Part shown: one piece after another, positions 33,881 through 36,600 of the stretch
Layout: each line of letters starts with the position of its first letter
How positions within the stretch are numbered: the first letter of the stretch is position 1
DNA from: a virus
Lineage: Duplodnaviria; Heunggongvirae; Uroviricota; Caudoviricetes
IMG/VR virus record: IMGVR_UViG_2541047784_000010
Coordinates: 1 to 40,741 of that record
Strand: one strand, 5' to 3'
Length of the DNA stretch: 40,741 bases
Made by a program: the position numbers and the translations under genes
The notes under the pieces: generated by a model
What the model saw: the letters and a program-made list of their open reading frames with translations, nothing else
What the model was told of the DNA's origin: nothing
Database searches by the model: none

Positions 33881-34204
33881 TTAATCATCCATGGATGGAT
33901 TGAGCTTATCTCGTGTTGATGTGGCGATTTGTCCTACATTCCTAAGCCAAGATTTCAAATCCTTGATATTGTCATTGATTTCATGAATATCTTCTTTTTT
34001 TAGTCTGTTAATATTATTCTCAATAATTTCAATGGATTGCTCAATATCAGATATAGTGAATGATAGTTTGTTCTTCTCATCTTTTATTGAGTTTTTAAGT
34101 GCTTCGTTCTCAGTCTTGAGGTCAGATATCTTTTGTTTTAAAGATGCCAGTTGGTACTGAACCACAATGAGTGCGATAGCTATCACGATAACTGTTGTAT
34201 ACAC
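33881..34204 (-). CDS. Membrane-anchored coiled-coil protein (107 aa), AT-rich
   Basis: N-terminal TM helix TTVIVIAIALIVVQY followed by heptad-rich sequence; AAGGAG RBS; last gene of mnt operon. Confidence 0.55.
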   Translation of the reverse strand: MYTTVIVIAIALIVVQYQLASLKQKISDLKTENEALKNSIKDEKNKLSFTISDIEQSIEIIENNINRLKKEDIHEINDNIKDLKSWLRNVGQIATSTRDKLNPSMDD

Positions 34205-34225: not shown

Positions 34226-34561
34226 CTATTTGGTAACCAAGGCAATAAACAGCGGAGCAAGGATTGCAGATATCATGAGGGCGATAAGCCACTTCTGATT
34301 CTCGTCCATCTTATCTGCTAGGCGACGCTCCATTCCGTGCATGTCGCCACGGATGCCAATCAACTCTTTTCTAGTTTCTGATATTAGCTTTTCTTGGTTG
34401 GCGGCAATCGTTTCAATGCGGGTCATTCTACTGTTCATATCTGATCCTCCTCCATTGCCACCTCCATGTGCTGGCTCTTCTGAGTCTTCAATTCCGATGG
34501 GGGCAAATTCGCTATTCGGAAAAGGATTGTCAGCATCGTAAGCCAACTTCAACTTAGACAT
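34226..34561 (-). CDS. C-tail-anchored membrane protein (111 aa)
   Basis: Gly-rich acidic N-terminal region, C-terminal TM helix WLIALMISAILAPLFIALV; overlaps upstream gene by 8 nt. Confidence 0.55.
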   Translation of the reverse strand: MSKLKLAYDADNPFPNSEFAPIGIEDSEEPAHGGGNGGGSDMNSRMTRIETIAANQEKLISETRKELIGIRGDMHGMERRLADKMDENQKWLIALMISAILAPLFIALVTK

Positions 34562-34919
34562 TGCTGTTTTTCTCCCTTAGATACCAGCTTAACACAACAC
34601 CTGTGTTGTACTGCATAATGTATCCGCAATGCTTGCAAATTACATGATAAGAGTAATTTATTGGGTTGAATGATTCATCTTCGTTTTTTATATATTCACC
34701 ATAATGGGCATGCCTACCCATGATGTCTTTTCCATTATCCTGATTTACAAATTGAACTTGAGGGACAACCATTTCAGACTGCCCGCACATTGGGCATTCG
34801 TCTGGAACACCTTTAGCTCTCAAGAAAGAGTCGAGAACCTTTGTAGTTATAGACGATAGCGCCTTGCGATATTCAGCCTCTCGCAGTTGATCGTCTGAGT
34901 ATCCTGAATTGTCACTCAT
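34554..34919 (-). CDS. Zinc-ribbon protein (121 aa)
   Basis: CPMCG...CKHCG cysteine pairs; ATGA overlap with mnt stop. Confidence 0.55.
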   Translation of the reverse strand: MSDNSGYSDDQLREAEYRKALSSITTKVLDSFLRAKGVPDECPMCGQSEMVVPQVQFVNQDNGKDIMGRHAHYGEYIKNEDESFNPINYSYHVICKHCGYIMQYNTGVVLSWYLREKNSNV

Positions 34920-35167
34920 TTTTCATCCTTACCATACATGGTCTTTAGCGTCTCAACATCGCGTTCAAGATCTATCAATCGTGATGCTATAGTTGCAAGG
35001 TCTAGTGCTTGAATGTGTTTATTTTTTTCGGTCCACGCTTCAAGTGCCGCGACCATCTCAGCATTTAATGAACGAGAATTAGCCTCAGCCAGTTCAATAA
35101 GACGTTCCTTTATCTCTACAGGAAGCCTCAGATTCACTTGAGGGTTTTTGTACTTACGATCAGACAT
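34916..35167 (-). CDS. mnt: Mnt-like ribbon-helix-helix repressor
   Basis: 83 aa (P22 Mnt length); N-terminal RHH motif LRLPVEIKERLIELAEANSRSLNAEMVAAL; divergent from arc-ant. Confidence 0.75.
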   Translation of the reverse strand: MSDRKYKNPQVNLRLPVEIKERLIELAEANSRSLNAEMVAALEAWTEKNKHIQALDLATIASRLIDLERDVETLKTMYGKDEK

Positions 35168-35272
35168 CGGCGCATCCTGAATAATTTTTTACCACAGGAT
35201 ATGTAGGTATCTATTGACTATCAATGCGTACCTAAATACTATGTATGCGTACCGCATACAACGGAGGATGCA
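35168..35272. promoter_or_regulatory. Divergent Pmnt/Pant region with palindromic operators (putative)
   Basis: Pant TTGACT-N17-TACTAT; palindromes TTGA-cta-TCAA (over -35) and perfect TATGCG-tac-CGCATA (35244-35258, at predicted start site before arc RBS). Confidence 0.6.
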
Positions 35273-35413
35273 ATGAAGGTAAAAACACTGCGTATGCCAG
35301 AGAAGTTAGAAAAAATCCTTGAAGAGAAAGCAAAGGAAGAGTGTCGCTCATTTAGTGCAGAAGTAATTAAACGGGTGATGGACAGCCTGAAGAGAGAGGG
35401 GATAACGGTATGA
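35273..35413 (+). CDS. arc: Arc-like ribbon-helix-helix repressor (46 aa, not in ORF track)
   Basis: Hand-translated MKVKTLRMPEKLEKILEEKAKEECRSFSAEVIKRVMDSLKREGITV; matches P22 Arc pattern (LRWPREVLDLVRKVAEENGRSVNSEIYQRVMESFKKEG); RBS GGAGG. Confidence 0.8.
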   Translation: MKVKTLRMPEKLEKILEEKAKEECRSFSAEVIKRVMDSLKREGITV

Positions 35414-35613
35414 GTAAAGAATGTTGTTTCTGCGGCATTAGCGAATCAGACGCTGATCAAACATACATTTACTCTAAAGAAACAGGTCGGATGCTGTGTA
35501 GTGACTGCGTGTTGGACATCATAAGATACAAGCATCTTGGATGTTCTGCCAGCATTAGCAATATAGGTGAAGTATATGAAGGGAAAGATATAACTGATAG
35601 AGCAGAAAGTTGA
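35410..35613 (+). CDS. Small zinc-ribbon protein (67 aa) between arc and ant
   Basis: CCFCG...CSDC cysteine pairs; ATGA-coupled to arc. Confidence 0.5.
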   Translation: MSKECCFCGISESDADQTYIYSKETGRMLCSDCVLDIIRYKHLGCSASISNIGEVYEGKDITDRAES

Positions 35614-35676
35614 AGCCCCAACTGCGGTAACAGTCAGGGCTTCGGTATCGTAAAACCACGCATAGGAATTAACGAC

Positions 35677-36600
35677 ATGAAAAGTATAGCAACAGCAGTA
35701 TCTACTATCAATGTACCATTCCACGGCGCAGAGCTTTATGTTGTCAATCACAACGGCGAACCGTATACCCCAATGAAACCTATCGTTGAGGGAATGGGGC
35801 TAGACTGGAAATCTCAACATAAGAAGATTTCTCAACGCTTCTCGAAGGGTATGGTGGAAATCACCATACCTTCTGCCGGTGGGGTGCAAGCCATGATTTG
35901 TATGGCTTTACGAAAATTGGCAGCTTGGTTGAACAGCATCAGTCCTAACAAAGTCCGCCCTGAAATCCGCGACAAGGTAATCCAGTATCAGGAAGAGTGT
36001 GACGATGTGCTCTACGAGTACTGGACTAAAGGCCATGTAGTTAATCCACGCAAAGCTAAAAAGGCGTTGCCGGGTAAAATCACCACTGAACAGCAGGAAG
36101 CCATTAAACAACTCGTCATGAGTCGCGGTCAGTCTCTGCCAAAAGAAAAACAGGCGAAGGCAATGATTACCATGTGGTCGTCACTGAAATCTCATTTTGG
36201 GTGTTCATACAAAGAAATCAGCGAGGAGCAGTTTACCGAAGCTCTGTCACTTGCAGCTCGCGTTCCGCTTGAAGGCGAGTTTATCGGCAAACAAGAGAAG
36301 AAAACCAACGAGCTTTCTGCAAAAGAAGCAAACAGCCTTGTATGGTTATGGGATTATGCCAACCGCTCACAGGCATTATTCCGCGAACTGTATCCGGCGC
36401 TAAAACAAATTCAATCGAACTATTCCGGCAGATGCTACGACTATGGTCATGAGTTCTCGTATGTTATCGGAATGGCGAGAGACGTTTTAATCAATCACAC
36501 ACGAGATGTTGATATCAATGAGCCAGACGGACCAACGAATCTTTCCGCATGGATGAGACTTAAGAATAAAGAATTACCTCCTTCAGTACATAACTACTGA
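35677..36600 (+). CDS. ant: Antirepressor (Ant-position protein)
   Basis: 307 aa in the position of P22 ant downstream of arc; N-terminus resembles antirepressor N-terminal domain; followed by terminator. Confidence 0.55.
   Translation: MKSIATAVSTINVPFHGAELYVVNHNGEPYTPMKPIVEGMGLDWKSQHKKISQRFSKGMVEITIPSAGGVQAMICMALRKLAAWLNSISPNKVRPEIRDKVIQYQEECDDVLYEYWTKGHVVNPRKAKKALPGKITTEQQEAIKQLVMSRGQSLPKEKQAKAMITMWSSLKSHFGCSYKEISEEQFTEALSLAARVPLEGEFIGKQEKKTNELSAKEANSLVWLWDYANRSQALFRELYPALKQIQSNYSGRCYDYGHEFSYVIGMARDVLINHTRDVDINEPDGPTNLSAWMRLKNKELPPSVHNY

Follow-up and report, generated by a model that had tools for sequence, protein, structure and literature searches.

The stretch of DNA analysed here (the window) is the 40.7-kb virus record IMGVR_UViG_2541047784_000010, and the element under study is a 105-bp interval at positions 35168-35272, which is exactly the gap between the start of a Mnt-like open reading frame (ORF) and a divergently oriented Arc-like ORF. 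The Mnt-like repressor gene (83 amino acids (AA); 34916-35167, minus strand) and the Arc-like repressor gene (46 AA; 35273-35413, plus strand) were taken from the ORF list, and both products match the Pfam family Arc (PF03869; 3e-10 and 2.9e-9, respectively). A Shine-Dalgarno sequence of the Arc-like gene (GGAGG, 35263-35267, plus strand) was recognized by reading the sequence, and its GGAG is kept in relatives. Further downstream follow a cysteine-rich ORF of 67 AA between the arc-like gene and ant (orf67; 35410-35613, plus strand; ORF list), a sar antisense RNA over the ribosome-binding region of ant (35608-35675, minus strand; Rfam RF00262) and the antirepressor gene ant itself (307 AA; 35677-36600, plus strand; Pfam P22_AR_N 5.7e-45 and P22_AR_C 5.7e-30). 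A P22-type tailspike gene lies downstream of ant. The mnt-like gene, the divergent promoters, the arc-like gene, orf67, sar and ant form a complete immI module in its usual place in a P22-like (Lederbergvirus) genome. Judged from its sequence and that of its relatives, the spacer at 35168-35272 appears to hold the promoters and operators of an immI antirepressor switch whose allele is not that of P22 but is carried by CUS-3-like prophages.

Three hallmarks of an immI region were found: a short control region between divergent genes for two ribbon-helix-helix repressors of the Arc/Mnt family, a sar antisense RNA opposite the translation start of ant and an Ant antirepressor gene downstream of arc. 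The divergent Pmnt/Pant control region claimed by the first-pass annotation is supported by the flanking proteins, which match PF03869 and have P22 Mnt and P22 Arc as their best structures, and by the sar RNA and Ant which follow. Neither P22 operator, Oarc (ATGATAGAAGCACTCTACTAT) nor Omnt (AGGTCCACGGTGGACCT), has a match at ≤ 3 mismatches in the whole window, and the promoters are not interleaved as in P22; the -35 hexamers are placed back to back, an arrangement which is kept in relatives. Since the operators, the interleaving of the promoters and the recognition residues of the repressors (see below) all differ from P22, this points to an allele of another specificity whose operators are arranged differently.

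Predicted back-to-back promoters

For comparison, 181 loci were gathered (80 viral loci with the Mnt-like protein, 80 viral loci with an Arc of type B, one of the types described below, and 21 genomic loci from Yersinia, Erwinia, Lonsdalea, Photorhabdus, Xenorhabdus, Providencia, Arsenophonus and others). The significance of repeats was determined using 2000 dinucleotide-preserving shuffles of the spacer.

The predicted promoter Pant (35214-35242, plus strand) would serve the arc-like gene, orf67 and ant. It consists of the -35 hexamer TTGACT (35214-35219), a spacing of N17 and the -10 hexamer TACTAT (35237-35242), with a predicted start at ~35249-35250, and the sigma70 promoter that had been claimed toward arc/ant is upheld by a promoter scan score of 9/12. 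Relatives keep the -10 hexamer as TAcTat, and TTGAC was found in 171 of the 181 loci. The predicted promoter Pmnt (35196-35224, minus strand; promoter scan also 9/12) consists of the -35 hexamer TTGATA (35224 to 35219), a 17-nt spacer and the -10 hexamer TATCCT (35201 to 35196). Positions 1, 2 and 6 of this -10 hexamer (35201, 35200 and 35196; TAnnnT) are conserved in ≥ 90% of 42 non-redundant relatives, whereas the others vary; since these are the most critical positions of a -10 hexamer, their conservation supports a real Pmnt. The -35 hexamers of both promoters share one base and the predicted starts (~35249-35250 for Pant and ~35189 for Pmnt) are ~60 bp apart, compared to ~37 bp in P22. 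There, the promoters interleave, with the -10 of Pmnt over the -35 of Pant and the -35 of Pmnt over the -10 of Pant.

In three haplotypes (L018, L020 and L051), the base equivalent to 35238 is changed from A to G, which turns the Pant -10 hexamer from TACTAT into TGCTAT. An exchange of A to G at the second base of a -10 hexamer is a classic promoter-down change, and expression of ant may be in the course of being silenced or of decaying in these haplotypes.

Over the -35 region, the palindrome TTGACTATCAA had been proposed as a candidate operator. The palindrome is present at 35214-35224, with arms of only 4 bp (5 bp when written as ATTGA/TCAAT). By arithmetic, ~0.7 palindromes with arms of this size are expected by chance in 105 bp and, therefore, TTGACTATCAA alone is not significant. 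It arises because the -35 hexamers of Pant (TTGACT, top strand) and Pmnt (TTGATA, bottom strand) overlap back to back. Thus, TTGACTATCAA is best described as two overlapping -35 hexamers, which is an explanation needing no operator, and its role as an independent operator palindrome was abandoned.

Phased boxes and palindromes in the spacer

The strongest repeat signal in the spacer is a direct periodicity of 21 bp, with 25 matches at 46 positions where 12.0 are expected. This value was reached by none of the 2000 shuffles at offset 21 and by one of the 2000 at any offset. The two 21-nt units behind the periodicity (GTATCTATTGACTATCAATGC / GTACCTAAATACTATGTATGC) are 71% identical, and the periodicity is retained in relatives (median of 25.5/46 matches). 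At offsets of 10 and 11, the observed autocorrelation is reached by 422 and 563 of the 2000 shuffles, respectively, and thus lacks significance; a half-period series (10-11 bp) of weaker boxes over the -35 and -10 regions (GACTAT, TACTAT) was dropped except as a possibility. A period-4 pattern TAnn (TATG TAGG TATC TATT ...) was also seen at 35200-35215 and 35236-35248, with an offset-4 autocorrelation of 27/63 (11 of 2000 shuffles).

The 21-bp spacing is that of a 9-bp box, ATGCGTACC (degenerate form RTRSRTAYC), which occurs in three copies in direct register, exactly two helical turns apart. Box L (GTAGGTATC; 35203-35211, plus strand) lies in the spacer of Pmnt. Box M (ATGCGTACC; 35224-35232, plus strand) lies in the spacer of Pant and abuts the upstream edge of the Pmnt -35 hexamer. 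Box R (ATGCGTACC; 35245-35253, plus strand) starts three bases past the Pant -10 hexamer and covers the predicted +1 position. The degenerate form is fitted by 30, 36 and 32 of the 42 non-redundant relatives at L, M and R, respectively, and the misfits at box R are sequences with a 1-bp indel or a truncation. Among 20 close haplotypes, which represent 104 loci, box R is without polymorphism. The exact 9-mer ATGCGTACC is found at 35224 and 35245 only, considering the entire window. Box L is pseudo-palindromic and can be read as a minus-strand box at 35206-35214 as well. Since a plain direct copy, (A/C/G)TGCGTACC, takes its place in relatives from Yersinia, Erwinia, Lonsdalea and Photorhabdus, the GTAGGTATC of the window is regarded as a diverged member of the same box. 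A resemblance between GTAGG in this box and the TAGA boxes in Oarc of P22 was considered but is taken as unproven, because spacing and context do not match. The core of the box, sGTAyC, is pseudo-palindromic, which would suit a two-fold symmetric ribbon-helix-helix dimer.

The consensus of the 42 relatives reads gTa.gTA.cTATTGACTAtCAATgCGTACctaaaTAcTatgtaTgc.TAcc..aTaca. The sequence TTGACnnnCAAT followed by the box was found in 171 of the 181 loci; the others have tandem repressor genes or no arc, apart from one that is truncated and one whose upstream region is unrelated. A 51-bp core (35203-35253) has 84-98% identity in most relatives, whereas the adjacent mnt gene has 43-60% nucleotide identity there; lower core identities belong to relatives with indels or truncation. 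The relatives conserving the core span Escherichia, Salmonella, Yersinia, Erwinia, Photorhabdus, Xenorhabdus and Providencia. A non-coding core which outlasts its flanking genes across genera indicates strong selection on the spacer. The conserved unit is the 9-bp box in three copies at 21-bp spacing rather than two unrelated palindromes.

Four loci from Providencia/Moellerella (L090-L093) have a mnt-like gene, no arc and have lost the -35 hexamer of Pant. Their boxes read TTAGGTATC, ATGCGTACC or GTGCGTACC, and GTAGGTATC, the third being degenerate in L091. They adjoin a promoter TTGATA-N17-TAGAAT, and homology between the four loci stops just beyond. The arrangement TATCAATGCGTACC of box M is kept in L090, L092 and L093; L091 has TATCAGTGCGTACC instead. 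An extra copy of CATACAAA is found 11 bp downstream in loci with a type-D Arc and in L089. In the four loci without arc, a LexA-box-like sequence follows the boxes ~60-110 nt upstream of the mnt-like start (CTGTGTATGTATACAG in L090 and TTGTATATGTATACAG in the others), and homology ends directly after it. In L091, the neighbouring gene is UmuD/LexA-like and has a canonical SOS box of its own.

An explanation without any operator would be that the conservation is due to the two promoters alone, and that an ancestral duplication of 21 bp and the symmetry of the promoters gave rise to the repeats and palindromes as side effects. Each of the two 71% identical 21-nt units contains a Pant promoter element, and an imperfect inverted repeat centred on 35219 (18-nt arms, 14/18 matches, 8 of 2000 shuffles) owes its symmetry largely to the back-to-back promoters. 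However, spacers and the region past a -10 hexamer normally drift, and these are the best-conserved bases across genera here; two flanking ribbon-helix-helix repressor genes need operators; and the loci without arc retain the boxes despite having no Pant. Promoters alone are, therefore, considered a very improbable explanation. As for the 35219-centred repeat, complementarity is kept among relatives only at the -35 hexamers, the TA cores of the boxes and the first bases of the -10 hexamers, whereas the other pairs are complementary in 14-62%. Since the symmetry is limited to hexamers and TA cores, L and M are read as boxes in the same register and not as a true dyad, and the repeat was rejected as an operator dyad.

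The second palindrome, claimed as a perfect TATGCG-TAC-CGCATA at the predicted transcription start, is present and even longer than described. It reads TGTATGCG-TAC-CGCATACA at 35242-35260, with perfect 8-bp arms (8+3+8), and a perfect arm of ≥ 8 bp with a loop of 0-6 nt occurred in 34 of the 2000 shuffles. Its perfection, however, is a property of a minority allele. The G at 35254, which makes the palindrome perfect, is found in three of 35 non-redundant alignable relatives, and most of them, including CUS-3, SEN22 and most prophages, have A. In these 35 relatives, the outer five pairs (TGTAT/ATACA) are complementary in 83-97%, whereas the values for the inner three are 60%, 9% and 57%. Among the close haplotypes, all five positions of the right arm from 35254 to 35258 are polymorphic, whereas 35239-35253, including the left arm, shows zero variation. 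The left arm is conserved because it is part of the block of box R, and the right arm is under weaker constraint. The proposal of two clean palindromes as two operators is therefore not maintained, as the first consists of two -35 hexamers and the inner right arm of the second is unconserved. A LexA (SOS) box, CTGT-N8-ACAG, is not represented by this palindrome, which reads TGTATGCGTACCGCATACA and is without CTGT or ACAG.

The start-site palindrome might instead act in RNA; it could form a stem-loop at the 5' end of the arc/ant mRNA or serve leftward transcripts as an intrinsic terminator. The allele of the window folds into an 8-bp hairpin of -9.5 kcal/mol, and a terminator scan flags the palindrome on the minus strand. 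However, the predicted start of Pant (~35249) lies inside the left arm, hence a Pant transcript would be without that arm. The fold is unexceptional (z = -1.66), and the majority allele (A at 35254) has a minimum-energy structure other than this hairpin. Compensatory changes, as expected for a terminator or a structured leader, were not found among the relatives, in which the inner pairs are complementary in 9-60% without covariation, and the minus-strand tail TAGTATTTAG is a poor U-tract. Given fold, covariation, U-tract and start position, this reading was rejected as extremely improbable.

At the level of DNA, the palindrome contains the inverted hexamers GTATGC (35243-35248) and GCATAC (35254-35259), which flank the core of box R. 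Their centres are 11 bp apart and together they span a 17-bp site; GCATAC is one base off the box core GCGTAC. A distance of 11 bp is the half-site spacing of P22 Oarc, and 17 bp is the size of Omnt. This geometry favours a real dyad.

Repressor proteins and proposed operator assignment

The best match of the Mnt-like protein among solved structures is P22 Mnt (1mnt, 3e-5), to which it is 32% identical over residues 8-80. AlphaFold2 predicts helices at 17-29, 34-48 and 57-82 (mean pLDDT of 77), and the modelled protein has the ribbon-helix-helix plus C-terminal helix of the Mnt family, where this last helix makes up the tetramerisation coiled coil. P22 Mnt contacts bases via Arg2, His6, Asn8 and Arg10, and P22 Arc uses Gln9-Asn11-Arg13 on the strand PQFNLRWP. 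The recognition strand of the Mnt-like protein, PQVNLRLP, has Gln10-Asn12-Arg14 at the aligned positions and no equivalent of the Arg2 context. Its triad is that of P22 Arc and not the His6-Asn8-Arg10 of P22 Mnt. In homologues down to 49% identity, the strand [N/H]PQVNLRLP is invariant.

The Arc-like protein is 38% identical to P22 Arc, which is its best match among natural structures (1baz/1arq, ~5e-4); the engineered pArc (1u9p) scores higher. With 46 AA, no C-terminal oligomerisation domain and the first position in the ant operon, it resembles the ~50-AA ribbon-helix-helix proteins of the Arc family. Its recognition strand KVKTLRMP has Val3-Thr5-Arg7 where Arc has Gln9-Asn11-Arg13. The Arc-like partner occurs in at least four types, with either VTR strands (types A, B and B') or PSR strands (types C and D). 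In a covariation search for an Arc operator, none of the spacer columns varies with the Arc type (VTR versus PSR) and the boxes are unchanged. Arc-like genes without a Mnt-like partner were also sought; all 80 viral type-B Arc loci carry a Gln-Asn-Arg Mnt in addition, and the protein search for such partnerless genes returned only 18 close relatives. A 79-AA 'Arc family DNA-binding protein' (PDB 9pio, chain G) is a weak match to both the Mnt-like (E = 0.004) and the Arc-like protein (0.002). The distinct immI specificity suggested beforehand is supported. P22 Omnt and Oarc are absent from the window, the proteins are 32% and 38% identical to their P22 counterparts and the recognition strands differ.

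The reading favoured here, which we consider moderately probable, is that the spacer is the control region of a non-P22 immI allele with back-to-back promoters and three phased 9-bp boxes as operator DNA; its mechanism we infer as follows. The boxes are probably recognized by the Mnt-like protein. They are assigned to it because its strand is invariant, because Arc types vary without a change of the boxes and because the boxes persist in loci without arc. The Mnt-like protein would form a tetramer via its C-terminal helix, and the length of this helix in the predicted structure (57-82) makes a tetramer bridging two boxes plausible. In the lysogen, Mnt-like protein expressed from Pmnt would occupy box R, probably together with box M or the flanking GCATAC hexamers, and this occupancy would block Pant and hence ant. 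Boxes M and L would give the Mnt-like protein autoregulatory access to Pmnt. After infection, Arc-like protein made from Pant would shut the region down again by acting on the same 60-bp block, and sar would act on the translation of ant as in P22. The Arc-like protein might bind to the TGTAT/ATACA arms, to a site with box M at its centre or to the boxes themselves.

A division of labour as in P22 would assign the sites differently. The Mnt-like tetramer would bind only to the 17-19-bp dyad at the Pant start (GTATGC-N5-GCATAC, 35243-35259), the Arc-like protein would have a separate operator within the overlap of Pant and Pmnt, over the -35 region and box M, and, as a consequence, Arc would repress both promoters and Mnt only Pant. 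The positions match this division, as Oarc of P22 lies between the -35 and -10 of Pant and Omnt just past the -10, and the 17-bp dyad resembles Omnt, with half-site centres 11 bp apart. The conserved outer arms TGTAT/ATACA (83-97%) and the significance of the 35219-centred inverted repeat in the window (8/2000 shuffles) speak for it as well. On the other hand, boxes M and R are an identical 9-mer and are co-conserved across genera, which is unexpected if they are read by a Gln-Asn-Arg and a Val-Thr-Arg strand. Across relatives, the 35219-centred repeat is kept only at the hexamers and the TA cores of the boxes (other pairs 14-62%), and the dyad has an unconserved inner right arm, with 35254-35258 polymorphic in close haplotypes. 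Furthermore, the strand types of the Arc-like protein switch while the spacer is unchanged, and box M persists in loci without arc. The P22-like division is, hence, held to be possible but doubtful.

Alternatively, both repressors could share the boxes, with Arc-like dimers (early and transient) and Mnt-like tetramers (maintenance) competing for L, M and R and no separate Arc operator. Once the hexamers, the boxes and the TGTAT/ATACA arms are set aside, the spacer shows no second conserved element; the strand type of the Arc-like protein varies without a covarying change in the DNA, and the arginine of the strand is kept in both proteins. However, P22 Arc and Mnt have distinct operators, only one of the three base-contacting positions is the same in both recognition strands, and the evidence in favour is of a negative kind only. 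Such sharing appears decidedly unlikely. A switch with a single operator code, in which Mnt-like tetramers bridge the three phased boxes over both promoters and the Arc-like protein uses the same boxes, is also rated as unlikely. If this were true, the three base-contacting residues of the strand would not determine the specificity of a ribbon-helix-helix protein, since the Gln-Asn-Arg of P22 Arc would here read a wholly different, pseudo-palindromic box (sGTAyC within ATGCGTACC).

Several points weigh against the favoured assignment of the three boxes as operator DNA of the Mnt-like protein. The consensus RTRSRTAYC was derived from the same sequences on which it is scored. Genome-wide, 13 box matches compare to ~10 expected, which is no enrichment, and the search for extra operator copies elsewhere in the phage found none beyond chance. 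Each of the three boxes overlaps a promoter spacer or the start site, and part of its conservation could therefore be due to promoter function. The TA core of box L is broken in the viable phage CUS-3 (GTAGGTGTC; A to G at 35209), hence box L may be dispensable. In the loci without arc, the boxes are spaced by 10-11 bp and not by 21 bp, which bears on the binding geometry. P22 Mnt binds a single 17-bp dyad and no box array. By analogy, M and R would belong to different proteins under the P22 pattern, against which the identical 9-mers argue, though not decisively. Finally, the literature search found genome-comparison remarks on the CUS-3-type allele and no experimental study.

Neighbouring genes and related immI alleles

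The sar RNA scores 85.7 bits against RF00262 over its full length (gathering score of 43, E = 8e-18) and overlaps the 3' end of orf67. Its predicted promoter Psar (35683-35711, minus strand; promoter scan 10/12) has the sequence TTGATA-N17-TATACT with an extended-10 TG, and its -10 hexamer ends 7 nt before the 5' end of sar as defined by Rfam. The start of orf67 overlaps the stop codon of the arc-like gene (ATGA). A Pfam search with orf67 gave no match, whereas PHROG 7150 (unknown function) is matched at 3e-50. Its cysteines are arranged as CCFCG...CSDCV, a CxxC...CxxC pattern which we take to be reminiscent of a ClpX-type zinc ribbon.

On the other side, a 121-AA ORF (34554-34919, minus strand) has two CxxC pairs, is zinc-ribbon-like and belongs to PHROG 4293 (unknown function). 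It is apparently translationally coupled to the mnt-like gene by an ATGA overlap at 34916-34919. Two further leftward ORFs of the same moron lie downstream of the mnt operon. The first (111 AA; 34226-34561, minus strand; PHROG 6324) has a weakly XhlA/holin-like C-terminal segment, and the second (107 AA; 33881-34204, minus strand; PHROG 5962) has a coiled coil and an N-terminal hydrophobic segment. Both may be membrane proteins expressed by the prophage, possibly in superinfection exclusion.

The immI control region of P22 (Pant/Pmnt, Oarc, Omnt) was reportedly described by Sauer et al. in 1983; its layout was taken here from the annotated records BK000583 and X01916. As in P22, mnt is directed leftward and arc-ant rightward, followed by sar and ant, and the module is located upstream of the tailspike gene and downstream of a homologue of the SEN22 DNA transfer protein. 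The repressors are homologous to Mnt and Arc, and candidate operator DNA lies within the spacer of a strong rightward promoter and over its start, where P22 has Oarc and Omnt and where box M and the box R dyad lie here. Differences concern the spacer (105 bp compared to 90 bp in P22), which has no similarity to the Oarc and Omnt sequences; the putative operators, which would be one box in three copies at 21 bp instead of two unrelated dyads; the strand of Mnt, which is Gln-Asn-Arg instead of His-Asn-Arg; and the 67-AA ORF between arc and ant, where P22 has no ORF.

The same immI allele is present in CUS-3 (CP000711; 96.5% identical from mnt to ant) and in the Salmonella phage SEN22 (NC_028696; 77% identical over mnt, spacer and arc). 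A comparison with 50,697 phage records showed the Mnt allele in these two phages only. Of 5,426 complete E. coli genomes, 146 carry the spacer, always without annotation, among them O104:H4 and K1 strains; many other Enterobacterales have the allele as well. CUS-3 and SEN22 share the layout of promoters and boxes with the window but have an imperfect palindrome (right arm CACATAC). Their records have no operators annotated, and no operator studies on them were found in the literature. CUS-3 differs further in having a second mnt, of the P22 type, downstream, where the window has the 121-AA zinc-ribbon ORF; this second mnt is preceded by a remnant of the sequence upstream of mnt in P22, without the Pmnt promoter. 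According to Villafane et al. 2008 (PMC2629481), CUS-3 apparently has no arc and must control ant differently. The CUS-3 record, however, contains a 46-AA arc-like ORF, unannotated, within 'bsq2', and RefSeq now names the E. coli copies Arc-family proteins. The ORF corrects the published impression that modules of the CUS-3 type lack arc.

Tandem mnt genes of different alleles occur in some prophages. CUS-3 (locus L001, 1210-1739) combines the Gln-Asn-Arg type with the P22 type, and in L010 and L033 a Kapi1-like mnt type (ending in ...LKTMYGK) is combined with the Gln-Asn-Arg type upstream of the mnt-like gene. Such stacked alleles suggest that immunity specificities have been collected against foreign antirepressor modules.

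The Salmonella phage Emek (JQ806763) also has divergent mnt and arc, a TTGACA and, just downstream of the promoter, a dyad TAGTAC-G-GTACTA, and its Mnt has a Gln-Asn-Arg strand (DPQFNVRMP). In contrast to the window, its operator sequences are different, its Arc is of the P22 type and no three-box array was seen on reading the spacer. The Emek allele shows that immI exists in several specificity types. Among other ribbon-helix-helix repressors, repeated short boxes are read by omega (heptads), MetJ (8-bp metboxes) and NikR (half-sites two turns apart). These have short, partly palindromic and phased boxes with one dimer each, and direct or inverted orientation is tolerated, as proposed for the boxes in the window. 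There is, however, no detectable close sequence relationship to these repressors, and the 21-bp spacing matches none of them exactly.

The immI region decides on the release of antirepressor by a P22-like prophage and thereby affects induction and the cross-talk with co-resident phages. The variant presented here does not overturn the current understanding; it is the kind of element expected at this place, with a layout unlike the P22 textbook case, and of modest interest in this respect. No prior definition of the CUS-3-type operators was found, and the three phased boxes together with the dyad would provide a concrete operator model for them. With a Mnt scaffold bearing the Gln-Asn-Arg strand of Arc beside DNA unlike the Arc operator, this allele represents a natural experiment for ribbon-helix-helix recognition.

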